Shown one piece after another: positions 7,119-43,205 of a DNA stretch of 64,000 bases. The stretch is from Candidatus Levyibacteriota bacterium (lineage in GTDB: Bacteria; Patescibacteriota; Microgenomatia; Levybacterales; GWA1-39-11). The translations under genes were made by a program, and so were the position numbers. Below the pieces are notes generated by a model that ran no database searches, had not been told where the DNA came from, and worked only from the letters and a program-made list of their open reading frames with translations. The DNA lies in contig DAIQMY010000001.1 of the NCBI GenBank assembly GCA_036788695.1, positions 396,767 to 460,766 of the forward strand, in the 5' to 3' direction. Each line of letters begins with the position of its first letter. The stretch's first letter is position 1.

Positions 7119-8408
7119 ATGAAAATAACATTTATTGGACATGGATATGTGGGTTTAGTAACAGCGGCAATTTTTGCTGATTTGGGGAATACTGTCTATG
7201 TCATAGGACACACAAAAGAGAAGATTGAAAATTTAAAAAAGGGCATTCTCCCAATATATGAGCCGGGGCTAAGTGAAATAGTTACACGAAATGTAGAGAA
7301 TGGTAGGTTAATCTTTACGCTTGAATATAGCCCAGCTGTTTCAGAATCCGAAGTTGTATTTATAGCTGTTGGAACTCCTCCGCAAAAAACAGGCGACGCA
7401 GAGTTAACAACAGTATTTAGCGTGGCTGAAAAAATCGCAAAAAATCTCACTCATTATACGGTGGTTGTAACAAAGAGTACTGTTCCTCCTGGGACCAATA
7501 GAAAGGTAAAAAGAATACTTGAGGAAAATGTAAAAGAAGGAATAGATTTTGATATAGCATCAGTGCCCGAATTTCTTAGAGAGGGAAGTGCTATTGAAGA
7601 TACCCTTCATCCTGATAGGGTTATCATAGGAACGGAAAAGGATAAACCCTTGGAGATTCTCAAAGAATTACATAAGCCAATGGGTGGGGAATTGGTTGCA
7701 ACAAATCTTGAGACTGCGGAACTTATTAAGTATGCATCAAATTCCTTTTTGGCTACTAAAATATCATTTGCAAACGCAATTGCTAAGTTGGCCGAAAAAA
7801 TAGGAGCAAATGCACCCGAAGCGCTACATGGAATTGGCTTAGATAAAAGGATTGGGGAAGCCTTTCTCTATGCGGGTGCGGGATATGGTGGTAGTTGTTT
7901 TCCAAAAGATGTAAAAGCGCTTTTGGCTATAGCAAAAGACAATGACTACAATTTTGCTCTTCTTGATGAGGTAGAAAAGATAAATGATTTTGCAAGACGA
8001 GATATTGTGAAAAAAGTAAAACGACTGTGTGGGGAGTTACGAGGTAAGACAGTGGGCATATTGGGTCTTTCATTTAAGCCAAATACTGATGACATGAGAG
8101 ATGCATCATCCATTACTATCATTAATCTATTAAAAAATGATGGTGTGAAGATAAAAGCTTATGACCCGCAGGCAATGGAGAACTCGAAAAAAATTATGCC
8201 AGAAATTACGTACTGTAAAGATCCATATGAAGTAGCAAAAGATGCAGATGCCATTTGCATACTTACTGAATGGAATGAATTTAGAGAGTTGGATTTAGAA
8301 AAAATTCGAAGTGTTATGAAGACGCCAAATCTGATAGATGGAAGAAATATATATGCACCGTCTGTGCTCGAGAAATTAGGGTTTAATTCAGTTGGGGTTG
8401 GAAGATAG
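7119..8408 (+). CDS. ugd: UDP-glucose 6-dehydrogenase (UDP-glucose/GDP-mannose dehydrogenase family)
   Basis: MKITFIGHGYVGLVTAAIFADLGN NAD-binding motif and a GSCFPKD catalytic Cys region. Confidence 0.8.
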   Translation: MKITFIGHGYVGLVTAAIFADLGNTVYVIGHTKEKIENLKKGILPIYEPGLSEIVTRNVENGRLIFTLEYSPAVSESEVVFIAVGTPPQKTGDAELTTVFSVAEKIAKNLTHYTVVVTKSTVPPGTNRKVKRILEENVKEGIDFDIASVPEFLREGSAIEDTLHPDRVIIGTEKDKPLEILKELHKPMGGELVATNLETAELIKYASNSFLATKISFANAIAKLAEKIGANAPEALHGIGLDKRIGEAFLYAGAGYGGSCFPKDVKALLAIAKDNDYNFALLDEVEKINDFARRDIVKKVKRLCGELRGKTVGILGLSFKPNTDDMRDASSITIINLLKNDGVKIKAYDPQAMENSKKIMPEITYCKDPYEVAKDADAICILTEWNEFRELDLEKIRSVMKTPNLIDGRNIYAPSVLEKLGFNSVGVGR

Positions 8409-8416
8409 TTGATATA

Positions 8417-9367
8417 ATGAAAAAGGCTTTCATAACAGGCGTTTCAGGATTTGCAGGCAGCTTTTTAGCTGAGGTACTATTGACTGAGGGAGTAGAAGTG
8501 CACGGAACCCATATTTCTTCTGATACTAAAAATATTGATCACATCAAAAACCGCGTACATCTTCATAAATTAGATTTGCTTGAGAGGGAAAAAGTACAAA
8601 AATGCATAGAAGAAGTTCAGCCTGATACGATATATCACCTTGCAGCCCTCACATCTCCTGCTGAAAGTTTTTCAAAACCAGAAACTGTATTTATAAATAA
8701 TGTAACAGCACAGATACACTTGTTAGAAGCTGTTAGGCTTTCAGAGGGTACTCCACGAATTATGATAATTTCTTCAGCGGAGGTTTATGGTATTGTGAAT
8801 TCATCAGACTTGCCTATATCTGAAAATATCCAGTTACGCCCAGGAAGTCCGTATGCAGTATCAAAGATTGCACAGGACTATTTGGGTTTGCAGTATTTTT
8901 TATCATACGGAATGGATATAGTACGCGTGAGACCGTTTAACCATATTGGGCCACGCCAATCGGCATCGTTTGTTGTATCATCATTTGCTAAGCAAATTGC
9001 AGAAGCTGAGAAAAAGAAAAATGGACAAGAAATTTTAGTTGGAAATCTGGATGCAAAAAGAGATTTTACTGACGTGAGAGATATGGTTCGGGCATATTCT
9101 TTACTTGCAGAAAAAGGAAAAAGTGGAGAAGTTTATAATATAGGCTCTGGAGTATCACATAGAATCTCGGACATTTTAGGTAAGCTCCTTTCTTTTTCCT
9201 ATGAAAAAATAGAAATAAAAGTAGATCCTTCTCGGATGAGACCATCTGATGTGCCTGACATACGATCTGATAATACGAAAATAAAAAATGCGACTAATTG
9301 GGTGCCGCATATTAAGCTTGATCAAACATTAAAAGATACACTTGATTATTGGAGAGATAACGTTTAA
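8417..9367 (+). CDS. NAD-dependent epimerase/dehydratase, probable GDP-4-keto-6-deoxy-D-mannose reductase (Rmd/Fcl-like)
   Basis: FITGVSGFAGSFLAE Rossmann motif and PYAVSK (YxxxK). Sits immediately upstream of gmd. Confidence 0.55.
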   Translation: MKKAFITGVSGFAGSFLAEVLLTEGVEVHGTHISSDTKNIDHIKNRVHLHKLDLLEREKVQKCIEEVQPDTIYHLAALTSPAESFSKPETVFINNVTAQIHLLEAVRLSEGTPRIMIISSAEVYGIVNSSDLPISENIQLRPGSPYAVSKIAQDYLGLQYFLSYGMDIVRVRPFNHIGPRQSASFVVSSFAKQIAEAEKKKNGQEILVGNLDAKRDFTDVRDMVRAYSLLAEKGKSGEVYNIGSGVSHRISDILGKLLSFSYEKIEIKVDPSRMRPSDVPDIRSDNTKIKNATNWVPHIKLDQTLKDTLDYWRDNV

Positions 9368-11546: not shown

Positions 11547-13130
11547 ATGCGCAAGAAAATGAAAAGAATATTTTTTAAAAAAGAGAACATCGCAATAGTT
11601 TTTATTCTTTTGGTTGGTGGCTTTTTTAGGCTCTATAAAATCTCAGAATATCTTACATTTTTGGGAGATGAGGGCAGGGATGTTCTTGTTGTAAAGCATA
11701 TTCTGGATGGTAATCTTACATTACTTGGACCTACAGCCTCAGTTGGTGGATTTTTTCTGGGACCGATCTACTACTATATGATGGCTCCTTTTTTACTCCT
11801 ATTTAACTTTAATCCTGTGGGACCGGCTGTTATGGTAGCACTTTTTGGTGTTGCAACCATATGGTTGGTGTATAGGGTGACGCGTGATTTTTTTGGTTAC
11901 TATCCGGCTCTTATTTCCTCATTCCTGTATGCAATTTCTCCGTTAGTAATCATTTATTCAAAATCGTCATGGAATCCTAATACTGTTCCCTTCTTCACAC
12001 TCTTAATGCTGTTCCTGCTTTATATGGGCTTGATGAAGAAATCGAGTAAATATTTTTTTCTTTCAGGCATAACCCTTGGAATACTGCTTCAGCTGCATTA
12101 CCTGACAACATTTCTTGGTGTTTTCTGTGGTATTTATATTTTGGTGGGTACATTTTATGGCAATAGTAAAAAAATAGTAGAATCACTCAGAACAGTACTT
12201 AAAAGATATGGGCTATTTGCGGGAGGAATAATTATTGGCTGGTCGCCATTTTTGGCGTTTGAAATTCGTCACGGCTTCCCTAACGTTAAAAGTATCTCTG
12301 AATTTGTCCTCTCATCTGGCGAAACAGGGAATAACGGACAATACTTTACTATTGTCTCAGATGTTTTTTTAAGACTATTTGGAAGACTTCTTTTAGCATT
12401 TCCGAGAGTAGAAGATTTGCGTTTATATTCACCGGCAGTTTTAGATGTATGGGGTTTTGCCTCATACGCAATAGGATTTTTATCAATAATTATGTGTTTA
12501 GTCGGGATTATCTATTCATTTAGAAAAAAAGATTCGTCATTTTACAAATATTCTTTACTTCTTTTATGGCTTCTTATCTGCGTGCTTTTGTTTGGCTTTT
12601 ATAAAAAAGCGATTTATGATTATTACTTTGGAATTTTATTCCCCCTCCCCTTTGTTTTATTTGGCGGGCTTGTGTCTTACGCATTTACGCGAGGAAAAAT
12701 TGTGAGCATCGCAGTTTTAGTTGGAGTATTAGGAATGGTAGCGCTTAATTTATACAACACTCCAATTTTTTATCCCAGAAATAACCAGCTAAAACAGGTA
12801 AGAAGTATTTCTGAATTTGTGTTATCAAAAACAGATGGAAAGCCGTTTAACTTTGCTGTTATCTCATCGGGGGGGAATTCTGACTATGCATACAGATACT
12901 TTTTTGAGGTAAACGAAAAGATACCTGTAACTATAGAATTTCCCGGCGCGGATCCAAAAAGAAATACTATTACTGACCAGTTGCTAATTGTATGCGAATC
13001 AGTGCCATGTCAGCCCCTAGGATACCCCTTATGGGAGGTTGCAGGCTTTGGACAGGCGGAGATAGTGGGGGAATGGCCAATATCAGTTGTGAAGGTCTAC
13101 AAGCTGGTCCACTATGAGGAAAAAAAGTAA
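11547..13130 (+). CDS. GT-C family membrane glycosyltransferase (ArnT/PMT-like)
   Basis: About 12 TM helices with a loop motif FLGDEGRD after TM1. Positioned directly after the polyprenyl-P sugar synthase. Confidence 0.6.
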   Translation: MRKKMKRIFFKKENIAIVFILLVGGFFRLYKISEYLTFLGDEGRDVLVVKHILDGNLTLLGPTASVGGFFLGPIYYYMMAPFLLLFNFNPVGPAVMVALFGVATIWLVYRVTRDFFGYYPALISSFLYAISPLVIIYSKSSWNPNTVPFFTLLMLFLLYMGLMKKSSKYFFLSGITLGILLQLHYLTTFLGVFCGIYILVGTFYGNSKKIVESLRTVLKRYGLFAGGIIIGWSPFLAFEIRHGFPNVKSISEFVLSSGETGNNGQYFTIVSDVFLRLFGRLLLAFPRVEDLRLYSPAVLDVWGFASYAIGFLSIIMCLVGIIYSFRKKDSSFYKYSLLLLWLLICVLLFGFYKKAIYDYYFGILFPLPFVLFGGLVSYAFTRGKIVSIAVLVGVLGMVALNLYNTPIFYPRNNQLKQVRSISEFVLSKTDGKPFNFAVISSGGNSDYAYRYFFEVNEKIPVTIEFPGADPKRNTITDQLLIVCESVPCQPLGYPLWEVAGFGQAEIVGEWPISVVKVYKLVHYEEKK

Positions 13131-18664: not shown

Positions 18665-19816
18665 ATGAGATTATATAATTCACAATCTAGGTCAAAGGAA
18701 GATTTTAAGACAATTTTACCCAATAAGGTGCTTATGTATGTTTGTGGCATAACACCAAACAATGCGACACATATTGGTCACGCATTCACCTATGTTTCCT
18801 TTGATATTTTAGTAAGATATCTGAAGCTGAAAGGATTTGAGGTAAATTACCTACAGAATGTGACAGACATAAATGATGGTGATGACGTGATTGCTCAAGC
18901 CCAAAAAACAGGTAAGACATGGCAGCAAGAAGCAGAGTACTGGGTTAATCACTTTCATCAGCAAATGGATGCGCTTAATGTGATTCGTCCCACTCAATTT
19001 ATTTTTGCAACAAGTGTGATGGATAAAATTATTGAGATAAATTCTGAGCTTATAAAAAAAGGATATGCATATGAAAAAAATGGGAATGTCTATTTTAATA
19101 TTTTGTCATTTCCCAAATATGGAGAACTTTCCCGGTATACAAATGAACAGATGTTATACATCTCAAAAGATCGCGGAAATAATCCTGATGATCCATATAA
19201 AAAAAATCCTTTAGATTTTGTTTTGTGGTTTAGATCAGATAGTATTCCTGCTTGGGATTCTCCATGGGGGAAAGGGAGACCGGGGTGGCATATAGAATGT
19301 AGTACCATGATAAATTCTCTATTGGGTCCACAAATTGATATTCATGGGGGTGGGCGCGATCTTATCTATCCTCATCACGATAGTGAGATAGCGCAGTCTG
19401 AAAGCTATACAGGAAAAACACCTTTTGTTCATACCTGGATGCATTCATCTATGGTTTTGTGTGAGGGGGAAAAGATGAGCAAGTCATTGGGAAACCTAGT
19501 ACTAGTTGGTGATTTACTTAAAAAATTCTCGCCTAATGCAATCCGTTGGATGCTTTTATCTCATCATTATAGATCACCATGGGAATACGAAGAGTATGAG
19601 TTGGAACAGATCGAAATAAAAGTTAGCAATATTTTGAGAGTTATTTCCGGTGTTTCAGATGATCACAAGACTGTGAATACGCAAGCGTTTGAACAAATTA
19701 TGGATGATGACCTAGACACTCCAAGCGTTTTACGCTACATAGAAAAATGTCTTGCTGATGGTGCAAAAAAAGAGGCAAAGAAAATGCTGAACATCTTAGG
19801 ATTTAATTTTGAGTAA
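18665..19816 (+). CDS. cysS: cysteine--tRNA ligase, short form (383 aa)
   Basis: HIGH motif THIGHAF, KMSKS motif, and the CysRS zinc ligand arrangement (CGIT, WHIECS, HGGGRDLIYPHHDSE). The C-terminal ~80 aa expected after KMSKS are missing. Confidence 0.75.
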   Translation: MRLYNSQSRSKEDFKTILPNKVLMYVCGITPNNATHIGHAFTYVSFDILVRYLKLKGFEVNYLQNVTDINDGDDVIAQAQKTGKTWQQEAEYWVNHFHQQMDALNVIRPTQFIFATSVMDKIIEINSELIKKGYAYEKNGNVYFNILSFPKYGELSRYTNEQMLYISKDRGNNPDDPYKKNPLDFVLWFRSDSIPAWDSPWGKGRPGWHIECSTMINSLLGPQIDIHGGGRDLIYPHHDSEIAQSESYTGKTPFVHTWMHSSMVLCEGEKMSKSLGNLVLVGDLLKKFSPNAIRWMLLSHHYRSPWEYEEYELEQIEIKVSNILRVISGVSDDHKTVNTQAFEQIMDDDLDTPSVLRYIEKCLADGAKKEAKKMLNILGFNFE

Positions 19817-33715: not shown

Positions 33716-33786
33716 TGCCGGATCATCTAATGGTAGGATAGTGGACTCTGAATCCATTCATTCTGGTTCGAATCCAGGTCCGGCAG
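33716..33786 (+). tRNA. tRNA-Gln (anticodon CUG)
   Basis: Hand-folded cloverleaf: acceptor TGCCGGA/TCCGGCA (U1-A72, as in bacterial tRNA-Gln); D-stem ATCT/GGAT; anticodon stem GTGGA/TCCAT; loop CTCTGAA with U33 and anticodon CTG at 33748-33750; T-arm TCTGG-TTCGAAT-CCAGG; discriminator G. CCA is not encoded. Confidence 0.8.
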
Positions 33787-33787
33787 C
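33770..33787 (+). repeat. left copy of an 18-bp exact direct repeat (tRNA-Gln 3' end), putative attL
   Basis: GAATCCAGGTCCGGCAGC; an identical copy lies at 39952-39969. Confidence 0.75.
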
Positions 33788-33909
33788 AAATTTTCTAGCC
33801 TCAAAAAACTATATCAAACCAAACAACCCACTCCTGGATTCGAACTTCTAGCTTCAACTAGCTAATTTTAGTCACTTGTATATAAATATATAAAATCTAC
33901 AATGTACAT

Positions 33910-34452
33910 ATGATTATTAGTCCGTACAAGCAAACACTTTCACATAGCTGCCTTGCCACATGCTTTCTCATGTTAAGACAAAAACATTTTAATGAATTTG
34001 ATGAGCAAAAATTAACATTAGATGGATCAAAAAGGATTTATCCTTTTTATGTTGTTGGGATTGCTATGGAATTTGTTAAGCAATTTAACAGCAAGCTTTC
34101 AGTATATGTTGACAATAAATACTTTGCCTCTGTTTTGAAGGATGCCTTTAAGGAGCAGAAAAGTATAGAAGTCATACATCAAAAAAATACCCTTTCATTT
34201 ATTTCTGAGCAACTTAATAAACAGCCACTTATTTGTCATATAGATGATCATGCCTTAGGGGATTACTCTCATGCTTCTCATTTTATAATACTAGAGAAAG
34301 CTACTAATAAATACATAGAGATAGTCGATCCATGGTTTGGGAAAAGAAAAATGATTAGCAATAAAACATTAGAAAATGCGATACATGAGTTAAGAGTTCA
34401 TGTAAAAATGTGTCCACTCATATTCTCAATAGGAGAACAACAAAAAAGTTAA
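33910..34452 (+). CDS. C39-like (papain-fold) cysteine peptidase domain protein
   Basis: Cys in LSHSCLATCFLML, His in SHASHFIILEK and Asp in DPWFG, with the spacing of bacteriocin-processing C39-type domains. No ABC transporter is attached. Confidence 0.5.
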   Translation: MIISPYKQTLSHSCLATCFLMLRQKHFNEFDEQKLTLDGSKRIYPFYVVGIAMEFVKQFNSKLSVYVDNKYFASVLKDAFKEQKSIEVIHQKNTLSFISEQLNKQPLICHIDDHALGDYSHASHFIILEKATNKYIEIVDPWFGKRKMISNKTLENAIHELRVHVKMCPLIFSIGEQQKS

Positions 34453-34673
34453 ATAACGTTAATTAAGTACTGTTGAGATCTCTGATATACTAGTTCTGGA
34501 TATCTGATTGAGTCAATCCACTTTTTTGTTCGGAAGTCCTCAATCAGTGCCAGCCAATATAAGAACCGAGAGTGACCGTACTCTCTAAATAGCCCGAGCG
34601 GGCCTTGCAAAGTGCCTCATTTTTCTTCAAGACATTCGTACTGAGATTATTGCATTTCAGTAGTTTATTTAGT

Positions 34674-34898
34674 CTATTTAGGTGAAGCCGTATATCCTGT
34701 TTTCTTAATCTGTTCAAGTATTACCTTAAATTCGATCTTTTCTTCATCAAATTCGACTTCACTTTCCTGCTTCGCATAATTAGTTTTTACTGACTTAACA
34801 CCTTCTAAATCCTCTAAATCGAAGTCTATATTCATGGCACACGAACTGCAATGCATGCCATCTATCTTAAGTTTTTTTTTAACTATATTATTGCTCAT
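34674..34898 (-). CDS. copZ: copper chaperone CopZ (heavy-metal-associated domain)
   Basis: GMHCSSCAMNI metal-binding motif (MxCxxC). 74 aa. Confidence 0.8.
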   Translation of the reverse strand: MSNNIVKKKLKIDGMHCSSCAMNIDFDLEDLEGVKSVKTNYAKQESEVEFDEEKIEFKVILEQIKKTGYTASPK

Positions 34899-35917
34899 AT
34901 TACTTCGATCACCCCCGTATACATTCCCATGGAGCAGCTAAAGGCAATCTTACCTGCCTTTTCTGGAGTAAATGTAAACGTATAAGTTTCGTTCGGTTGA
35001 AGGTTTTTACTTATCCCTAGTGATGGTATTCTAAACGCTGAGGCACAACTATATGCATCCTTACTAACTAAGTTTAAGGTAACTGGCGAATCTTTTTTAA
35101 CCTTAATATAGTTGGGCGAATAACCACTTGCAGTAACGTTTATTTGCGCAGTATTTGAAGGTGGTGTTTCATTATATAACTTTACTGTTTCCTTTGGCTG
35201 TGAAGTGGTTTGAAAAATTCCTGATAGAGCTTGTAAAGTTACAGGTGTGCCACTTGCAACTAAAGCTCCATTGACCGAAGTAATTCCTAGATAAATAACT
35301 ACGATAGCAGCTAATTTAAGAAACTTAGCTCTGAAATTATCACCCATAATGCTAGTTAACCAACCTACACCAAAGAATAGAGGTGTTGTGCCAAGAATAA
35401 ATGCGACCATAATCGAAGCACCCAAAAAGGGGTTTGCACTACTTATGGCTAGAGCTTCCATCGCTAAAGTCGTTCCACAAGGAATGAAAATTGTCATTGC
35501 TCCTAATAGCGCAGGTGCAAATAAATCTTTATTTTTAGATGCATTTTTAACTCTACGTGTTAAAAACTTTGGAGGCTGAATAACTGCATATCTAAATATC
35601 GGGTGTACGTTAAGCAAATTTAATGCCACAGCGATCATATAAAGCCCTGCTACAAGTTGCATTATTACTTGAATAGACTGATTGATACCAATAGCTCCAC
35701 CGAAGCCTCCCAAAATAAATCCTAATAATGTATATGCAATAAGTTTAGCTACAAGAAATGCCAAAGTAGGAAAGACCGTATCTTTTTTGTTTGTGCCTTT
35801 TTCTACTTCTTCCTCTTCTTTTGCCGCAATCACAGACGCTAACAACCCACCCTGAACCGCCAGGCAAGTTAATCCTCCAACAGTTAAACCAGTTAGAAAT
35901 ATAAGCCAAAGATTCAT
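34895..35917 (-). CDS. polytopic membrane protein with a C-terminal cupredoxin-like domain (putative copper-handling permease)
   Basis: About 8 TM helices are followed by about 100 aa ending in a Cys/Met/His block (SCASAF... FSCSMGMYTGVIEV). Embedded between copA and copZ. Confidence 0.5.
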   Translation of the reverse strand: MNLWLIFLTGLTVGGLTCLAVQGGLLASVIAAKEEEEVEKGTNKKDTVFPTLAFLVAKLIAYTLLGFILGGFGGAIGINQSIQVIMQLVAGLYMIAVALNLLNVHPIFRYAVIQPPKFLTRRVKNASKNKDLFAPALLGAMTIFIPCGTTLAMEALAISSANPFLGASIMVAFILGTTPLFFGVGWLTSIMGDNFRAKFLKLAAIVVIYLGITSVNGALVASGTPVTLQALSGIFQTTSQPKETVKLYNETPPSNTAQINVTASGYSPNYIKVKKDSPVTLNLVSKDAYSCASAFRIPSLGISKNLQPNETYTFTFTPEKAGKIAFSCSMGMYTGVIEVI

Positions 35918-35919
35918 AA

Positions 35920-38142
35920 TTATATTTTAACCTTTCTAAGTAGCAATGAATTTGAAACAACCGAAATTGATGATAAAGCCATTGCCACTGATGCAAAAAT
36001 TGGATTTAATAACATACCCATGAATGGGTATAGGGCACCCATTGCAACAGGAATCAGAAGTACGTTATACCCAAAAGCCCAGAACAAATTCACTTTAATT
36101 GTACGCATGGTCTTTTTAGAAAGTTCAATAGCAGAGGAGACTGCCTTTAAATCCTTGCTTATAAGTATGATGTCTGCCGCTTCAATTGCTACGTCGGTGC
36201 CTGAACCCATTGCAATGCCAATATCGGCTGCTGCGAGTGCGGGAGCATCATTAATACCATCTCCTACCATTGCGACTATTTTCCCTTCTGCTTGAATTTT
36301 TCTTACTTCTGCTTCTTTTTGGTCTGGCAATACTTCCGCTAATACACGTTTTATACCGAGCTTTTGTGCAATAGCATTAGCAGTTCTTTGATTGTCCCCA
36401 GTAATCATTATCACTTCTATTTTTTTATCTTGGAGTGCTTTCAAGCCTTCTTTTGCGGAATCCTTTATCGTATCAGCAACTGCAATAAGTCCAGCAAGTT
36501 TTCCATTAACTGCAAGCATTATTACTGTTTTTCCATCACTCTCTAGCTTGTTCATTTGTTCAGTAATTTCTTTATAATCAATTTTCTCTTTATCCATTAA
36601 TTTTCTACTTCCTAGAAATACTTTTTTAGTGTTGATCAACCCTTCGACTCCATGACCATCAATAGCTTGAAATTTCGTAACTGAACCAATTTCCAACTTC
36701 TGTTCTTCTGCTTTATTTACGATTGCCTCAGCAAGAGAATGTTCTGATCCTTTTTCAATTGATGCAGAAAACTGAAGTACATCATCTTTTTTGAATGAAT
36801 TAAAAGGAATAATATCAGTGACGATTGGTTTCCCGTTTGTAAGAGTTCCAGTTTTATCAAATACGACAGTATTTACTTTGTTTGCCAGCTCTAAACTTGC
36901 AGCGTCTTTTATGAGGATACCCCGTTGTGCCCCCACACCTGTTGCAACCATAATTGCAGTGGGCGTTGCTAAGCCCATTGCGCAGGGACAAGCAATGATA
37001 AGTACAGCTACCGTATTGAGCATCGCATACAAAAGAGACGGATTAGGACCAAAAATATACCAAACGCCAAATGTCGCGAAAGCAAGCATAATCACGATTG
37101 GTACGAAATATGACGACACTGTATCTGCAAGACGTTGTATTGGGGCCTTACTTCCTTGTGCTTCTTGTACGAGCTTTATTATTTGAGCAATCATGGTATC
37201 AGACCCAACTTTCATTGCCTTATATATAAATGTGCCTGACTTGTTCATGGTAGAACCAATAACCATATCGCCCTTAGATTTATCTACTGGAAGACTTTCT
37301 CCGCTAATCATTGACTCATCAATCGATGATTCTCCTTCAATAATTTCGCCATCAACAGGTATTTTTTCTCCTGGTCTTACGCGAATAACATCCCCAACTT
37401 GTACTTGCTCAATGGGAATATCTATCTCTTTACCATCCCTTATAACTCGTGCTGTTTTTGCTTGCAGTTCTACAAGCTTTTTAATGGCGCTTGAAGTTCC
37501 AGCCTTAGCTTTTGCTTCAAAGTAGCGGCCTAAAAGAATCAGACCAATAACTATCGTAGCAACATCAAAATAAGGCATTATTTCAACGCCTAGACCTATA
37601 AAAACATTAGGGAAGATAGTTACAACCGCAGAATATAAATATGCAACTGTAGTACCTAAAGCAACTAATGTATCCATATTTGAAGTTCTGTTTTTCAGTG
37701 CAGCAATAGCAGTTCTGTAGAACTCTAATCCAGCCCAGAACTGTACAGGTGTGGCTAAAAGCATTTGTACCCAGAAGTTATGCAAAATCGCTGGGGCAGT
37801 GTTCATAAGCCCTGGGAATGAACCCCAGAGGATTAAACCACCTAGTGCCAGACTGGTAATAACTTTATTCCTTAACCCTTGTAGTTCTTTTCTTCTTTCA
37901 GCAAGAGCGATTTCTTCGCTTTTTTCTTCAAGTTCAAGAGTGTAACCAGTTTTAGCAATAGAGTCTGCTAATTGTTGTGGCGTGCAAATGTCTTTATCGT
38001 AGGTAACCGTAGCTTTCTCAGTGGCTAAGTTTACAACAGCCTCTTTAACTCCTTGCACTTTTTTCAAAGCACGTTCGGTAACTCTTACACAGGAAGCACA
38101 ATGCATACCTTTCATTGGAAATGTTTGTTTTGTTTTTGCCAT
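35920..38142 (-). CDS. copA: copper-translocating P1B-type ATPase
   Basis: N-terminal HMA domain [12 protein letters not shown]-like SGESLPV, the CPC motif in [18 protein letters not shown], and [10 protein letters not shown]. Start set at the ATG at 38142 (MAKTKQ). Confidence 0.9.
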
Positions 38143-38143
38143 A

Positions 38144-38503
38144 TTATTGAACGATAATCTTTCCATGAAACATATTCATGCCACAGGATATTTCAAATGT
38201 TCCGCTTCTGGTAGGCGTTATTTGTATAGGAGTTGTTTTATTTAACGGTAGATATTTTCTTATTTTAAAATCGGGCAACACAACTTCTTCAAGACAAGAG
38301 CTGGGGTCGCGACGAATAAAATTAATAGTTGTCTGTTTATCTTTAGGAATTGAAATAACGCTTGGAGAATATCCACCTTCTACAGTAATATCCAGACTAT
38401 TTCCTTTTACGACAACCGCTTCACCATCTTTCCTCATTAAGAAAAACCAATAAGTGAAAGCAATGCCACTAATACTAGATATAGCTACAAGTAATTTATC
38501 CAT
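38144..38503 (-). CDS. small cupredoxin-like protein
   Basis: N-terminal TM helix. The C-terminal [16 protein letters not shown] block is paralogous to the C-terminus of the 34895-35917 protein. Confidence 0.5.
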
Positions 38504-38552
38504 AAGTTATCTCCTTGGAAGAAGCATATGCACCTCTTCTAAAAAGGTGACA

Positions 38553-39212
38553 CTATTGCCAGTTCTTCAGCCATTGACGCATTTGGTCAATTTCTTTTGT
38601 TTGTGCTGCGATTATGTCATCAGCAAGCTTTTTCATCTCTGGTCTTTCTGTGCCATTTTTAAGCATACTGGCCATCATAACTGCCATTTGATGATGTGGA
38701 ATCATCTCTTCAACAAAGGCTCTATCAAAATCAGTAGACTTCTCGAGATTTGTCATATCAGATGCATCTCCCATCATGCCCATGTGTGTACTATTACTTG
38801 TTCCCATCATTCCATGTTGGTTCATAACTTGATTATCCTGAGGTACTTCTTTACCAAACCAAGTTTTATACCAATCTTTCATTTGATTTATCTCTTTCCC
38901 TTGAGAATCAATGATGTTGTTTGCTAGTTCTTTTACTTCTGGCCGTTGTGCTTTTGTTTGAGCTAATTTAGCCATTGTGATTGCATCCTCATGGTGAGGG
39001 ATCATTTGCTCAATAAAATGAGCATCAATGGAGTTAGAGTTTTGCATTACACCCGTTTGGTTTCCATTTCTATAGCCCATCATTTCCATCATTCCAACAT
39101 TGTTCGAATTAACAATTGTCATTGTTGTGAGCCAAACAAGTATTGTTCCGATAAGTATTCCTCCTAATCCATATTTGAATTTATCGTTTTTCATATTTTC
39201 ACCTCCGTTCAT
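38553..39212 (-). CDS. DUF305 domain protein
   Basis: Duplicated MIPHH(E/Q)xA...M motifs (MIPHHEDAITMAKL and MIPHHQMAVMMASM). N-terminal TM anchor. Confidence 0.7.
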   Translation of the reverse strand: MNGGENMKNDKFKYGLGGILIGTILVWLTTMTIVNSNNVGMMEMMGYRNGNQTGVMQNSNSIDAHFIEQMIPHHEDAITMAKLAQTKAQRPEVKELANNIIDSQGKEINQMKDWYKTWFGKEVPQDNQVMNQHGMMGTSNSTHMGMMGDASDMTNLEKSTDFDRAFVEEMIPHHQMAVMMASMLKNGTERPEMKKLADDIIAAQTKEIDQMRQWLKNWQ

Positions 39213-39484
39213 TATGATTTTTTTTTAAAAACTTCCATTATTTCAGCGATTGATTTATCAGCTTTACCTTTAGCAATTGCATCCGCTACACAAGATTTAA
39301 GATGGTTTTCGAGTAATAGGTTTCCTGTTTCCTTTAATCCGCTTTCAATTGCCTGAATTTGATGTATGACATCAATGCAGTATGCGTCGTCTTCCATCAT
39401 TTTGATGACTTTATCGATGTGGCCTCTTGCGATCTTGAGGCGATGAGTTATTCGTTCGTGAGTGTTTTTTGGTCTGTATGCCAT
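39212..39484 (-). CDS. csoR: CsoR/RcnR-family metal-sensing transcriptional repressor
   Basis: RLKIARGHIDKV followed by the C-H-C sensing triad context (YCIDVIHQ...LKSCV). 90 aa. Confidence 0.75.
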   Translation of the reverse strand: MAYRPKNTHERITHRLKIARGHIDKVIKMMEDDAYCIDVIHQIQAIESGLKETGNLLLENHLKSCVADAIAKGKADKSIAEIMEVFKKKS

Positions 39485-39951
39485 ATATCCCCCTATGAGG
39501 GATATACTAGAGAATTATAGAATAAAAGTCAATGCTATTTCTAAACAAGGGGTAATGAAGTGATGGTTTCGTTGTGAGTATACAGATGCCTTATTTACCT
39601 TCAACAGCCTGGAGAAATGATGGTACTATAATGATAGAATGGGTCTAGACCATGAGGTACAGCAGATTCGACTCGCTTCGCTCGCTTACAGCTATAGCCA
39701 AGAGGAGAATCATCCTAAGTGGGCAACGCGAACCGAAGGAATATGCCTTTTTACGTTTACATTCTTCGTAGCACTTCAAGCCAATTATATTGGTCAAGCA
39801 AAATAATCTTCAGAATAGAGAGCATCAACAATTAACAAAAAGTTCTAAGGCGGCAAAGTATATTAAAGATAGTGAAGAATTTAAACTCGTCTTTCATGAA
39901 GAGTATTCAAGTAGGTTTGAATGTGTAAATTAACTGTGAGCTAGCCGAACA

Positions 39952-39969
39952 GAATCCAGGTCCGGCAGC
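39952..39969 (+). repeat. right copy of the 18-bp direct repeat (partial tRNA-Gln 3' end), putative attR
   Basis: GAATCCAGGTCCGGCAGC, identical to 33770-33787. Confidence 0.75.
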
Positions 39970-40107
39970 GAAACTTGGATTTAACCCTAAGCCGTTGGTA
40001 GTATGTGGTATAAGAGAGCAATCCGAGCGTTTAATTTATGGAGGAGACATGAGTGGGAGGTGGATTATCATAAATAAAAAAGGTTAAATCATGTAAAATA
40101 CAGATAC

Positions 40108-40314
40108 ATGAGTCATAATGTTAGTAATAATGTTTCCGACTATCGCAATAAAAATAAAGTAACTCAAGAAGAACTTGGGAAAGCGGTGGGGGTAACTCGC
40201 CAAACAATTATTGCAATTGAAAAAGGCAATTATACCCCATCAGTTTTGCTTGCTTTAAAAATTGCAAAGTATTTCAACACTATGGTTGAAAAATTGTTTA
40301 CAATAGGAAGGTAG
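40108..40314 (+). CDS. XRE-family helix-turn-helix transcriptional regulator
   Basis: [37 protein letters not shown] is a Cro/C1-type HTH. Confidence 0.75.
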
Positions 40315-40344
40315 CTTGTTGCAAGCTTCCACAGAGAGGTAATT

Positions 40345-40698
40345 ATGATCATTGAAACTATCAGTGCTATCGCAATACTTGGAATAGCAATTCTATTTTT
40401 AAATCCTGGTCATCTCACAATGCCTGACTCTATGGTGTCAATGTTAATCATAGGACTCATTGTTTCGTTTCTTACGTTTGCTGCTTACCTTTTTAGGGAA
40501 AAATCTTTGGATGAAAGAGAAGCGGTACATATTCTTACTGCCGGAAGGATTTCATATCTCGTTGGAGTTGGTACGTTAATTCTGGGTATCATATTGCAGG
40601 CACTCAAGCATGAGATAGATCCTTGGCTAGTTTTTGCACTCTGTGCCATGGTTTTTTCCAAGCTTCTTTCCCGAATTTATTCTCACTTCAAAATGTAA
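40345..40698 (+). CDS. small membrane protein, likely partner of the XRE regulator
   Basis: Three or four TM helices. A tight operon with the HTH gene, which is a common XRE plus small-membrane-protein pairing. Confidence 0.4.
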   Translation: MIIETISAIAILGIAILFLNPGHLTMPDSMVSMLIIGLIVSFLTFAAYLFREKSLDEREAVHILTAGRISYLVGVGTLILGIILQALKHEIDPWLVFALCAMVFSKLLSRIYSHFKM

Positions 40699-40705
40699 AG
40701 GTAAC

Positions 40706-40793
40706 TTGACATTTATAATTTTATTTACTACGATAAATAAGTAAACTTTTTTTCAAATAAGTAAATTTTTTGCAAATAAATATCGGAGGCGGG
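40706..40793 (+). promoter_or_regulatory. putative promoter (TTGACA-N17-TACGAT), then two 11-bp direct repeats AAATAAGTAAA spaced 20 bp apart, then a GGAGGCGGG RBS
   Basis: TTGACA at 40706-40711 and TACGAT at 40729-40734. Repeats at 40735-40745 and 40755-40765, with a partial third copy near 40773. The ATG is at 40798. Confidence 0.4.
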
Positions 40794-40797
40794 ACAT

Positions 40798-41322
40798 ATG
40801 AAAAATCCAATAATAATCTTTGTAGTGATTGCAGCTGTAATTCTTCTTGGTGTGGGTGGATATATCCTCTCTCAAAATTCTTCGCAATCCGATTCCGTGA
40901 TGCCTGCAAAGGATGTAGCAATGAAACCTACAGATAAGATGATGAAGAAAGATGATAGTGCTATGGAAGGTGAGAAAATGATGGATGACAAAAAGACTAG
41001 TTCTGGATATGTCCAGTACAAAAAGTCAGTTTTTGACAGTGCAGCAAGTTCCCGCCGAGTATTGTTTTTCTACGCATCGTGGTGTCCAACTTGTAGGCCC
41101 GCAGATGGAAGCTTTACAAAAAACGCGGGTAAAATTCCTGAGGATGTCACGCTTATCCGGGTGAATTACAACGATCCTGAGACAGATCAGGAAGAAAAAG
41201 ATCTTGCAAAAAAGTATGGTATCACGTACCAACACACATTTGTCCAAATTGATAGTAACGGACGCGAAGTGACTAAATGGAACGGTGGACAAATAGACGA
41301 ATTACTTTCTAAGATTAAATAA
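40798..41322 (+). CDS. membrane-anchored thioredoxin-like protein with a Met-rich segment
   Basis: WCPTC (CxxC) in a thioredoxin-fold context (VLFFYASWCPTCRP). N-terminal TM helix. Met-rich linker PTDKMMKKDDSAMEGEKMMDDKK. Confidence 0.65.
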   Translation: MKNPIIIFVVIAAVILLGVGGYILSQNSSQSDSVMPAKDVAMKPTDKMMKKDDSAMEGEKMMDDKKTSSGYVQYKKSVFDSAASSRRVLFFYASWCPTCRPADGSFTKNAGKIPEDVTLIRVNYNDPETDQEEKDLAKKYGITYQHTFVQIDSNGREVTKWNGGQIDELLSKIK

Positions 41323-41373
41323 GGAGTACAGTTTTATTACAAGATTAGTGTCAGAGATTAATTTGAAAAAACT

Positions 41374-43101
41374 ATGATATTACTAATCGCATTTGCATTT
41401 TTGGCTGGAGTTATTACGGTACTTTCACCATGTATCCTTCCTATCCTTCCCATCATTCTTACTTCAAGTATTGGTGGCGTAAATACGGGAAAATCCAGAC
41501 CAGTGGGAGTAGTTATTGGTTTTGTTCTTAGCTTTACCTTCTTTACACTTTTTCTTTCAACCATAGTACGTTTGAGTGGTATCCCTGCTGAAACACTTCG
41601 TTTTTTTTCAGTAATCGTAATTGCTGGTTTTGGACTTTCACTTCTTATTCCTCAATTTCAGGTGCTTGTAGAACGATTGTTTTCTAAACTGGCAGGCTTT
41701 ATGCCGAGTAGTCAAAATCGTACTGGTTTTGGCGGAGGCTTACTAATAGGATTTTCTGTAGGACTTCTCTGGACTCCGTGTGTAGGTCCCATTTTAGCGT
41801 CAGTTATATCTCTTGCGATCACTGGCACTGTTACCTTTGATGCATTTTTAATTACCCTCGCCTATTCACTTGGCACAGCTATCCCAATGTTTCTTATCAT
41901 GCTTGGAGGGCAGAATGCTCTTCGTAGAGTTCCGTGGCTACTTTCTAACCTAGGTCGTATTCAAAAACTGTTTGGCGTGCTTATGATCCTGACTGCCATT
42001 GGTATATTTTTTAATATTGATCGAAGATTTCAGACATTTATCTTAAACACTTTCCCACAATATGGTACGGGTTTAACTCGTTTTGAAGATAATCAATTGA
42101 TTCGGAATCAGTTAGATAAAAAAGCGGCTGATGAGGTAAAAAAAGAAGATATGGGCAAGCCTATGTTTGATCTTGTTAATCCAAAAGGGGTCAAAGCTCC
42201 TGAGGTTATTCCTGGGGGTGTTTGGTTTAATAGTGACCCGCTGACGCTTGCGCAGTTAAGAGGAAAAGTTGTCCTCATAGATTTTTGGACATATTCATGT
42301 ATTAATTGTCAAAGAACGCTGCCATATTTAAGAGATTGGAATAAAAAATATAAGGATAAGGGGCTTATCATTATTGGTGTTCACGCACCAGAATTTGAGT
42401 TTGAAAAAAGTGAAAAAAATGTTGCACTAGCAATAAAAGATTTTAATCTAGCTTATCCTATTGTCCAAGATAATGACTTTGCTACTTGGAGGGCATATAA
42501 CAATAGGTATTGGCCAGCCAAATATTTTATTGATAAGGAGGGTTATATTCGCTATTCACATTTTGGTGAAGGAGCATATGATGAAAGCGAAAAAGTTATT
42601 CAAGAGCTGCTGAAAGAAGCAGGGGCTACAGATATATCTTCTGAAATTAATAACCCAACCTATCAGATTCAAGCCAAAACTCCTGAAATATATTTGGGAT
42701 ACGCGCGAATTGAGCATTTTGCATCCACTGAGACTATTAAGAAGAGTGAATTAAGCACCTACTCGGCTCCAGAAAAACTTGGAAATAACCAAATGGCATA
42801 TGCAGGCAATTGGAATATTATGGAAGAATATGCCAACCCTCAAAAAGGATCAATCCTCACGCTTAACTTTGACGCGAAAGAAGTATTTTTAGTGATGCGC
42901 ACAAAAGGAGCGCCAGCTAAGGTCAAGGTATATCTGGACAATAAGATACAGGATTTTGGGAAGGATAATATAAATGGTGTAGTTACAGTAGATAGTGATG
43001 CGCTTTACAAACTGATTAATTTATCATCCCCAGGTCGTCACATTTTAAAGCTTGAATTTGAAGACAACAATGCAGAACTTTTTGCTTTTACATTTGGTTG
43101 A
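41374..43101 (+). CDS. CcdA/DsbD-type transmembrane thiol-disulfide transporter fused to a TlpA/ResA-like redoxin domain plus an extra C-terminal domain
   Basis: N-terminal CcdA-like helices with SPCILP and TPCVGP cysteines. A central redoxin region VLIDFWTYSCINCQRTLPYL...GLIIIGVHAPEFEFEK. About 170 C-terminal residues remain unassigned. Confidence 0.7.
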   Translation: MILLIAFAFLAGVITVLSPCILPILPIILTSSIGGVNTGKSRPVGVVIGFVLSFTFFTLFLSTIVRLSGIPAETLRFFSVIVIAGFGLSLLIPQFQVLVERLFSKLAGFMPSSQNRTGFGGGLLIGFSVGLLWTPCVGPILASVISLAITGTVTFDAFLITLAYSLGTAIPMFLIMLGGQNALRRVPWLLSNLGRIQKLFGVLMILTAIGIFFNIDRRFQTFILNTFPQYGTGLTRFEDNQLIRNQLDKKAADEVKKEDMGKPMFDLVNPKGVKAPEVIPGGVWFNSDPLTLAQLRGKVVLIDFWTYSCINCQRTLPYLRDWNKKYKDKGLIIIGVHAPEFEFEKSEKNVALAIKDFNLAYPIVQDNDFATWRAYNNRYWPAKYFIDKEGYIRYSHFGEGAYDESEKVIQELLKEAGATDISSEINNPTYQIQAKTPEIYLGYARIEHFASTETIKKSELSTYSAPEKLGNNQMAYAGNWNIMEEYANPQKGSILTLNFDAKEVFLVMRTKGAPAKVKVYLDNKIQDFGKDNINGVVTVDSDALYKLINLSSPGRHILKLEFEDNNAELFAFTFG

Positions 43102-43205
43102 TTGGTAATAGCTATAGAAATCTATCTTTTCAGACAAAAATGTGCTATTTTTTGCGAAATTATTTTTTAGCGCATTTTAAGTTTATTCCTGATATAATTT
43201 TCAAA

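Follow-up and report, generated by a model that had tools for sequence, protein, structure and literature searches.

Does an exact copy of a tRNA 3′ end on the far side of a gene island mark the border of that island? The question is raised by a copper-homeostasis (cop) island beside tRNA-Gln(CUG) in 64,000 nucleotides of a Candidatus Levyibacteriota genome (contig DAIQMY010000001.1 of GCA_036788695.1, forward-strand positions 396,767 to 460,766). This whole 64-kb stretch is called the window below. An initial annotation, made from the letters of the window alone, described a tRNA-targeting integrative element bounded by an 18-bp duplication of the tRNA tail. From comparison with related genomes we instead favor, as the rather likely history, a nested hotspot in which an older cassette encoding a GIY-YIG nuclease made the repeat and a later cop island of recombinase-borne type lost its enzyme.

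Relatives from three other species, reached through homologues of the flanking genes, carry different DNA at the same tRNA (numbers preceded by L denote loci). Nearest to the window is spB (GCA_964419005.1; L143 merged with L006), with core proteins 97-99% identical. In L017/L021 (GCA_964394645.1), core proteins are about 85-92% identical, and L018 belongs to the same species as L017. The third species is represented by L022 (GCA_017992235.1). Contig CAYMYC010000001.1 (L017/L136) is labeled "uncultured Gammaproteobacteria bacterium," which is probably a taxonomic error, given 84-92% identity between its core genes and those of the Levybacteria window. The features on which the comparison turns are as follows.

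33716-33787, + strand: tRNA-Gln(CUG), called by ARAGORN; the target of all insertions described here.
33770-33787, + strand: 18-mer copy 1, from the center of the T-loop (after TTC, starting at GAATCC) to discriminator G73 plus one base.
33784-33787, + strand: left junction CAGC, from blastn end points and junction sequences.
33788-33909, no strand: left arm of the island; begins with AAAT and holds, on the minus strand at 33833-33845, 13 nt of the tRNA T-arm in inverted form (GTTCGAATCCAGG).
39626-39659, no strand: right arm of the island, 34 bp, common to L022, whose interior differs.
39660-39663, + strand: right junction CAGC, identical to the terminal 4 nt of the tRNA and the exact point where homology to spB starts.
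39952-39969, + strand: 18-mer copy 2, a displaced tRNA 3′-end copy at the distal end of the GIY-YIG cassette.
39970-40076, no strand: 107 bp 3′ of copy 2, delimited by alignment end points; putative original tRNA trailer.
40108-40314, + strand: XRE-type HTH gene, the start of the conserved right flank (HTH, 117-aa protein, thioredoxin, DipZ).

The tRNA is also matched by Rfam RF00005 (33716-33786, 56 bits), with nothing else from Rfam between 33000 and 41000, and its sequence is the same in spB and L022. The window contains exactly two copies of the 18-mer, GAATCCAGGTCCGGCAGC, both on the + strand. Allowing up to two mismatches gave no third copy in the window, and allowing up to four errors gave no further degenerate copies, which would be a sign of tandem islands. 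Copy 2 is followed immediately by GAAACTTGGATTTAACC (given in other lengths as GAAACTTGG and GAAACTTGGATTT). Among 100 dinucleotide-preserving shuffles, not one gave two matches (mean 0.00), in agreement with the initial annotation that an exact duplication of this kind is very unlikely to arise by chance. The same arrangement is present in independent assemblies of other sequencing runs, one spanning the whole region (L002) and one 99% identical (L013), and is therefore no assembly artifact. The structure is real and present in more than one strain (one independent assembly differs at 1% of positions).

A scan of a genome collection with the 18-mer returned at least 120 stretches from many phyla, among them L030, L079, L133, and L138. 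Such a wide distribution would suit a second copy that arose by chance or belongs to a genome-wide repeat with no relation to the tRNA. Against this, 74 of the 120 matches listed (~60%) lie in a tRNA-like T-loop context; the shuffles never produced the two copies seen in the window; and copy 2 is placed relative to the GIY-YIG cassette as in two other genomes, L156 and L030, described below. We regard this explanation as extremely improbable and effectively refuted. Among the matches listed (at least 120), no 8-kb block contained two copies of the 18-mer. L138 was considered as a clean empty site and rejected, its tRNA-Gln being split by an insert.

Where, then, does the variable DNA begin and end? 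On the left, blastn homology to every relative ends 1-6 bp past the tRNA (window 33788-33793). On the right, homology returns well before copy 2. In spB, L006 8623-8726 corresponds to window 39660-39763; the following 313 bp (39764-40076) are missing, covering both 39764-39969 and 39970-40076 by the alignment end points, and homology returns from 40077. In L022, positions 7765-7700 match window 39626-39691 at 83%, and homology returns from 40078. Because homology resumes at 39660 (spB) or 39626 (L022), ~290 bp before copy 2, the 18-mer is not the edge of the island, contrary to what the initial annotation proposed. The tetranucleotide CAGC precedes a shared sequence, (A/T)GATTCGACTCGCT..., in all three genomes:

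Window right junction: ...GAGGTA CAGC AGATTCG
spB right junction: ...AGAGTGC CAGC TGATTCG
L022 right junction: ...TATGCT CAGC TGATTCG

The window and spB were inserted at the identical point, between tRNA...CAGC and (A/T)GATTCGACTCG; the sequence starting after the right CAGC, which would follow the tRNA-CAGC join of an island-free site, is AGATTCGACTCG. The only short core common to both ends of the window island is CAGC(A), at 33784-33788 and 39660-39664. Variable DNA fills 33788-39659 of the window, 5,872 bp, at the same insertion point as the recombinase-borne elements of relatives. G+C content, a comparison that the initial annotation had proposed, does not distinguish the island (0.34-0.40) from its flanks (0.31-0.40).

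Inverted T-arm copies comparable to the 13-mer of the left arm lie 27-57 nt past tRNA-Gln in L079, L120, and L130. The 13-mer was rejected as a decayed antisense tRNA, as it shows no T-stem pairing and no ARAGORN or Rfam call. In L079 (1764-1590, minus strand) and L120, whose titles read Parcubacteria group and uncultured Saccharibacteria, a ~170-nt mini-element directly follows tRNA-Gln. It opens with 17-21 nt of the tRNA 3′ end in inverted form and, in L079, closes with a 15-nt direct copy of the tail. The window left arm shares with this mini-element the AAAT start and the inverted T-arm copy (13 nt).

The cop genes themselves differ between the relatives far more than their surroundings do. 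In spB, the DNA flanking the island is 94-97% identical to the window and core DNA 97%, against 75% for cop DNA and 50-86% for cop proteins. The gene order there is tRNA, a 516-aa large serine recombinase (LSR), an inverted cop operon, a methyltransferase, a DUF87 ATPase, and others, extending ~16 kb to the HTH, 117-aa, thioredoxin, and DipZ flank. Since cop divergence is far above core divergence and the operon is inverted in spB, the two operons were not inherited from the common ancestor of the window and spB; judged by these identities, the cop operon is a horizontal acquisition. In L017, a 37-bp native trailer separates tRNA-Gln from a 447-aa LSR; after a second DUF305 gene comes a cop operon whose DNA is 71% identical to that of the window, and a NUDIX gene adjoins it directly, the HTH-DipZ module being missing. 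L018 has a cop operon 97.5% identical to that of L017 without the 2.3 kb that carries the 447-aa LSR, and a 6.6-kb element with a 545-aa LSR is inserted exactly at its tRNA end. L022 has no cop operon between tRNA and HTH gene, only a gene for an RsgA-type ribosome-biogenesis GTPase (7775-8848; PF03193, E = 1.5e-49) between tRNA-Gln and the shared 34-bp arm. No second 18-mer was found in spB, L017/L021, L018, or L022, even at up to four errors. A cop operon at this locus without the repeat, which the initial annotation had named as speaking against its proposal, is thus what L017/L021, L018, and spB contain.

The enzymes adjoining the tRNA in these relatives (516 aa in spB, 545 aa in L018, 447 aa in L017) each combine Resolvase, Recombinase, and Zn_ribbon_recom domains. 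They are 24-35% identical to one another, and only the catalytic domain matches a solved structure (3guv). L018 and L017 form an occupied/empty pair for the 545-aa element: its attL and attR share 7 bp (CAGCCAA), and the displaced native trailer is found at the far end of the element. In spB, attL (...GGTCCGG CAGC ACGTTC...) and attR (...AGAGTGC CAGC TGATTCGACTCG...) have only CAGC in common. From their sequences, these two junctions read as the reciprocal products of an attB x attP exchange, and the matching attP (AGAGTGC CAGC ACGTTC) is present, intact and inverted, inside the spB island. What holds of the integrative element originally proposed is acquired, variable DNA at the tRNA-Gln 3′ end; its 18-bp att pair does not, the junction identity in relatives being 4-7 bp.

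The spB element has an exact 101-bp inverted repeat at 12659-12759 and 19212-19308 (merged locus, window orientation), which comprises the recombinase 3′ end and CAGC. Next to it, the other arm of the element is present as an inverted copy (19309-19400), which creates an intact attP-like junction between copZ and the methyltransferase gene; the element is possibly invertible or composite. The LSR open reading frames (ORFs) L143 7547-9097 and L018 7465-9102 run across attL into the tRNA gene (antisense of window 33730-33787). The last 19 codons of both (LPDLDSNQNE[W/R]IQSPLSYH, then stop) are the antisense of tRNA-Gln, and the C-terminus of the enzyme therefore differs between the integrated and excised states.

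No such gene accompanies the window island. Pfam found no recombinase domain in any of the island ORFs. Searching the 64-kb window by tblastn with the LSRs of three relatives matched only the antisense tRNA tail. No recombinase pseudogene was found in 33788-33909 or 39485-39951 with the LSR queries and tyrosine-recombinase probes, and a crude tblastn probe for tyrosine recombinases gave no match in the window. These searches agree with the initial annotation that no tyrosine or serine recombinase is visible; the stretch 39485-39951, which it had suggested checking for integrase remnants, contains a GIY-YIG pseudogene instead. Viral-collection scans with the 516-aa LSR and with the right arm of the island gave no match. 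The pair L017 (with LSR447) and L018 (without it) shows that a single species can lose the recombinase adjoining its cop operon, a direct precedent for the "decayed and fixed" state that had been offered as one option for the island. Delivery of the window island by an LSR, followed by loss of that LSR, has in our estimate about an even chance of being correct.

A different route to an island without a recombinase would be allelic replacement, in which the cop segment arrived by homologous recombination and its junctions were inherited from a donor where a recombinase once acted. The conserved tRNA and upstream core genes would serve as anchor on one side and the leader/HTH/DipZ module on the other. 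Unusually high conservation over many Microgenomates lineages (77-91% protein identity, >100 clusters) makes the DipZ module a possible anchor, and the 34-bp right arm common to L022, with wholly different interiors, fits the exchange of an interior between fixed ends. However, the nearest species have recombinase-bearing versions, and the sharp 4-bp junctions still call for a site-specific event somewhere in the history. The present data do not separate this route from recombinase loss, and we consider it unlikely.

If the 18-mer does not border the cop island, what made it? The 288 bp directly before copy 2 (39664-39951) are a decayed GIY-YIG cassette composed of a leader, a pseudogene, and an end motif:

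39664-39742, + strand: cassette leader (AGATTCGACTCGCTTCGCTCGCTTACAG...), found directly 3′ of tRNA-Gln in other genomes of the candidate phyla radiation (CPR).
39743-39933, + strand: GIY-YIG nuclease pseudogene, frameshifted twice (near 39783 and 39800) and cut short at its 3′ end.
39936-39951, + strand: right-end motif GTGAGCTAGCCGAACA, which precedes the repeat in L030 in closely similar form and ends the cassette in L152.

The conceptual translation of the pseudogene matches PF01541 (E = 1.9e-8, profile positions 2-61 of 78) and is 66% identical to an intact protein in L155. A metagenome scan with the pattern tRNA tail, two free bases, and TTCGACT recovered 12 genuine tRNA-Gln loci with the leader abutting the tRNA, 10 of which have an intact GIY-YIG ORF 60-150 nt downstream. 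In the window, the leader follows CAGC at 39664-39742, as in other CPR loci where a TTCGACTCGCT-type leader precedes a GIY-YIG ORF. The leader also follows tRNA-Gln in genome loci from Colwellbacteria, Amesbacteria, Levybacteria, and another member of the Parcubacteria. A GIY-YIG gene was present in only 5 of 74 tRNA-Gln contexts sampled, and this patchy distribution suggests mobility rather than conserved synteny.

Two genomes have the cassette and a tail copy with no cop genes. In L156 (Levybacteria RIFCSPLOWO2_01_FULL_39_10), the tRNA tail is followed by the leader, an intact GIY-YIG gene, GAATCCAAGTTCGACAGC, and then CAAGACGGGC; GAATCCAAGTTCGACAGC is a 16/18 copy of the tRNA tail that starts at the same GAATCC. 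L017 passes from tRNA...GGCAGC directly into CAAGACGGGC and represents the empty site for this cassette. In L030 (Colwellbacteria), an exact 16-nt (16/16) copy of the tail follows the cassette. The repeat scores of L156 and L030 were each reached by 0 of 500 shuffles. Moreover, the cop islands of spB and the window differ, but both genomes have the leader and the pseudogene start in one and the same position next to the HTH gene; the cassette and repeat would therefore be older than the cop islands. Comparison of these loci indicates that the 18-bp repeat would be there even if the copper genes were not, and that it most likely belongs to the GIY-YIG cassette.

These observations bear directly on the possibility that a single element of ~6.2 kb, comprising the C39-like peptidase gene, the cop operon, and the GIY-YIG cassette, was inserted by a T-loop tyrosine integrase through an 18-bp attP/attB and later lost that integrase. 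The exact 18-bp direct repeat, running from the T-loop to the tRNA 3′ end with no other repeat that long, is what such an element would leave, this being the classic extent of a T-loop-class att site (10.1101/2020.11.02.365908). It is hard to reconcile with the segment 39660-39951, which is partly common to spB and L022 beside the HTH gene, both without this cop island, or with the cassette and repeat that occur free of cop genes in L156 and L030. Cop operons occupy the locus without a second 18-mer in three other genome or assembly types, and no tyrosine integrase was seen in any related locus inspected. We judge a single element improbable.

Several features of the cassettes deserve mention. 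The leader (TTCGACTCGCT...GCTCA, window 39664-39690) and the right-end motif (TGAGCTAG(C/T)CGAA, 39936-39951) are imperfect inverted repeats of one another (loci compared: window, L152, and L030). Both resemble the T-loop, and a third copy often lies just before the start codon (CCTGAGCG.AGTCGAAGG). In another Levybacteria genome (L147, 9029-9475), the gene after tRNA-Trp encodes a GIY-YIG protein and has a comparable leader; a NADAR gene and a homologue of the C39-like gene come next. The cassettes are therefore not confined to tRNA-Gln. A Levybacteria tRNA-Gln in L153 (13490-13674, equal to L156 2690-2506, minus strand) is split in the D-loop region by an insert of ~112 nt, which holds another complete tRNA-Gln(CUG); the acceptor stem of this second gene is different, and the inverted repeats CCCCGCACCTTT and AAAGGTGCGGGG flank it.

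The nested history that we favor would run as follows. In this Levybacteria lineage, the tRNA-Gln(CUG) 3′ end is an insertion hotspot, and what the initial annotation took as one event would be two, one nested in the other. In the older event, a GIY-YIG cassette (leader, ~90 codons, right end) would have settled after the tRNA and displaced its last 18 nt beyond the cassette. Because the repeat starts in the middle of the T-loop, the cassette side would now supply the functional tRNA tail. The cassette of the window (39664-39951) would later have decayed while the repeat at 39952-39969 stayed intact. In the later event, the 5.9-kb island (33788-39659) would have entered between the terminal CAGC and the leader, duplicating only CAGC(A). 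The LSR genes of sister species at this junction read into the tRNA, and the island was most likely brought by a recombinase of that type; it would now be immobile unless a recombinase were supplied in trans. Recognized sublocations of integration in tRNA genes are the T-loop, the anticodon loop, and the 3′ end (10.1101/2020.11.02.365908), and two of them appear to be used here in one tRNA by two different kinds of element.

A more far-reaching version of the first event, which we put forward tentatively and think rather doubtful, is that short GIY-YIG genes after CPR tRNA genes are autonomous mobile cassettes that insert into the T-loop without a recombinase. Each cassette would bring its own tRNA tail and leave the old 16-18-nt tail behind, and the displaced tails and regenerated tRNA ends might then act as landing pads for serine-recombinase islands.

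A number of points weigh against the nested history. The window island has no recombinase gene or remnant, and its assignment to an LSR draws on analogy with relatives and on 4-5 bp of junction identity. Its reconstructed attP matches no known site, and its right arm is common to L022 only, where the interior is an RsgA GTPase gene, which is odd as cargo and has no counterpart there in other species. For the cassette, 6 of the 10 loci scored show no detectable repeat after the GIY-YIG gene. The 10 loci are eight distinct cassettes plus L115 and the marginal L079, and the six without a repeat are five further distinct cassettes and L115. The tail repeat is either often decayed or not always made, and its link to the cassette comes from three to four lineages. 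No genome was found that has the tRNA, the cassette, the 18-mer, and the HTH gene without the island. A perfect 18-mer beside a decayed cassette is possible by chance, although the history does not predict it. The order of events, the LSR origin of the window island, and the movement of the cassette are each steps that we infer.

The genes between the two junctions are those of a copper-efflux operon and one unrelated gene. Pfam and NCBIfam bear out the seven genes first annotated, a six-gene minus-strand cop operon and a convergent C39-like peptidase gene, in which the operon reading frames from csoR to copZ abut or overlap:

33910-34452, + strand: C39-like peptidase gene, stand-alone cargo unrelated to copper (Pfam PF03412, E = 1.7e-5).
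34674-34898, - strand: copZ, HMA copper chaperone (Pfam PF00403, NCBIfam).
34895-35917, - strand: membrane protein with DsbD_2 and C-terminal cupredoxin domains (Pfam).
35920-38166, - strand: copA, P1B-type Cu(I) ATPase with N-terminal HMA domain (Pfam; TIGR01511, 646 bits, cutoff 397).
38144-38503, - strand: small cupredoxin-like protein (Pfam).
38553-39212, - strand: DUF305/CopM-family metallochaperone (Pfam; NF049983, 125 bits, cutoff 90).
39212-39484, - strand: csoR, CsoR/RicR-family copper-sensing repressor, first gene of the operon (PF02583, NCBIfam).
39484-39506, no strand: perfect palindrome TATATCCC-N7-GGGATATA, overlapping the csoR start.

A promoter-like sequence, TAGAAA-18-TATAAT (39543-39514, minus strand), lies just upstream of the palindrome, which is plausible as a candidate CsoR operator. 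With a CsoR-family repressor (PF02583), a CopZ chaperone (PF00403), and a Cu-type P1B ATPase (TIGR01511) all within one operon, the unit looks intact and self-regulated. Family membership predicts that CsoR senses Cu(I), that CopZ and CopM act as chaperones, and that CopA is the exporter.

Homologues of the 180-aa C39-like peptidase (45-63% identity) occur in many CPR lineages and also among the DPANN archaea, where source names point to Nanoarchaeota and Aenigmarchaeota; this spread suggests exchange between two groups of ultra-small organisms, CPR and DPANN. These homologues were followed as a lead to an intact, recombinase-bearing island and set aside, as the two contexts inspected were unrelated, without cop genes or a link to a recombinase. 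On the other side of the island, the right-flank module (window 40077-43180) encodes the HTH protein, the 117-aa membrane protein, thioredoxin, and a DipZ-like protein of 575 aa. The DipZ-like protein falls in >100 database clusters at 77-91% identity, named after Levy-, Woese-, Gottesman-, Shapiro-, and Daviesbacteria; for the neighboring core protein PMT, identities fall from 83% straight to 48%. By this pattern, the HTH-DipZ module looks like another horizontally spread module adjoining the island.

These results highlight that, where mobile elements stack at one tRNA gene, the textbook signature of a tRNA and a repeat of its tail can be credited to the wrong element; the stacked elements were told apart here only through comparison with relatives. 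The ultra-small CPR bacteria of the Levybacteria would exchange copper-efflux operons at a tRNA-Gln hotspot served by LSRs, with recombinase-less copies becoming fixed, which bears on how reduced CPR genomes gain stress-resistance genes. The island is an ordinary kind of element in an unusual host, and the nested structure and the GIY-YIG cassette are of more interest. The recurrent association of that cassette with a duplicated tRNA tail provides a lead to a possibly undescribed mobile element. If the cassettes were indeed autonomous, the 18-bp repeat would be the trace left by a nuclease-driven, tRNA-targeting element of an undescribed kind. In a limited library we found no literature on serine-recombinase islands or tRNA-linked GIY-YIG cassettes in CPR, which does not in itself prove novelty.

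How does the locus compare with known systems? Islands with tyrosine integrases that target tRNA genes, and their sublocation classes, were reportedly described by Williams in 2002. Like these, the window has an insertion immediately 3′ of an intact tRNA, cargo that varies among related genomes, a metal-resistance operon as adaptive cargo, and a direct repeat of the tRNA 3′ end from the T-loop. Unlike these, it has no tyrosine integrase, nor do the relatives inspected; the recombinases of the site are of the serine type, the long repeat does not delimit the variable DNA, and G+C content does not deviate.

The cassette recalls the free-standing GIY-YIG homing endonuclease genes, such as those of the phage T4 Seg proteins and the relatives of I-TevI. 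Shared features are a small ORF, a compact cassette, patchy occurrence among relatives, and a constant position beside the same target gene. The cassette proteins differ in being of a ~90-aa, single-domain type with no recognizable DNA-binding domain, and their mobility is presumed from distribution. They also differ in being flanked by a 16-18-nt duplication of the target 3′ end, which classical homing does not produce.

The cargo resembles the CsoR-regulated copZA-type operons of Gram-positive bacteria (B. subtilis copZA/csoR, M. tuberculosis cso/ricR) in its CsoR repressor, CopZ, CopA P1B ATPase, and GC-cored palindrome at the promoter. The window unit differs in the added genes for CopM/DUF305, a small cupredoxin, and a DsbD_2-cupredoxin protein.

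Finally, the staphylococcal cassette chromosome (SCC) and pseudo-SCC elements are integrative elements of the LSR type moved by Ccr recombinases. The parallels comprise an LSR gene at the junction (here in relatives), short attL/attR identity, a conserved housekeeping gene targeted at its 3′ end, stacking of several elements at one site, recombinase-less derivatives, and copper or heavy-metal cargo, which is known on SCC. The target here is a tRNA 3′ end and not rlmH, the window copy has no recombinase, and the host is an uncultured CPR bacterium. By this analogy, the window island would be best described as a recombinase-less derivative of the LSR type, standing to its relatives as pseudo-SCC does to SCC.

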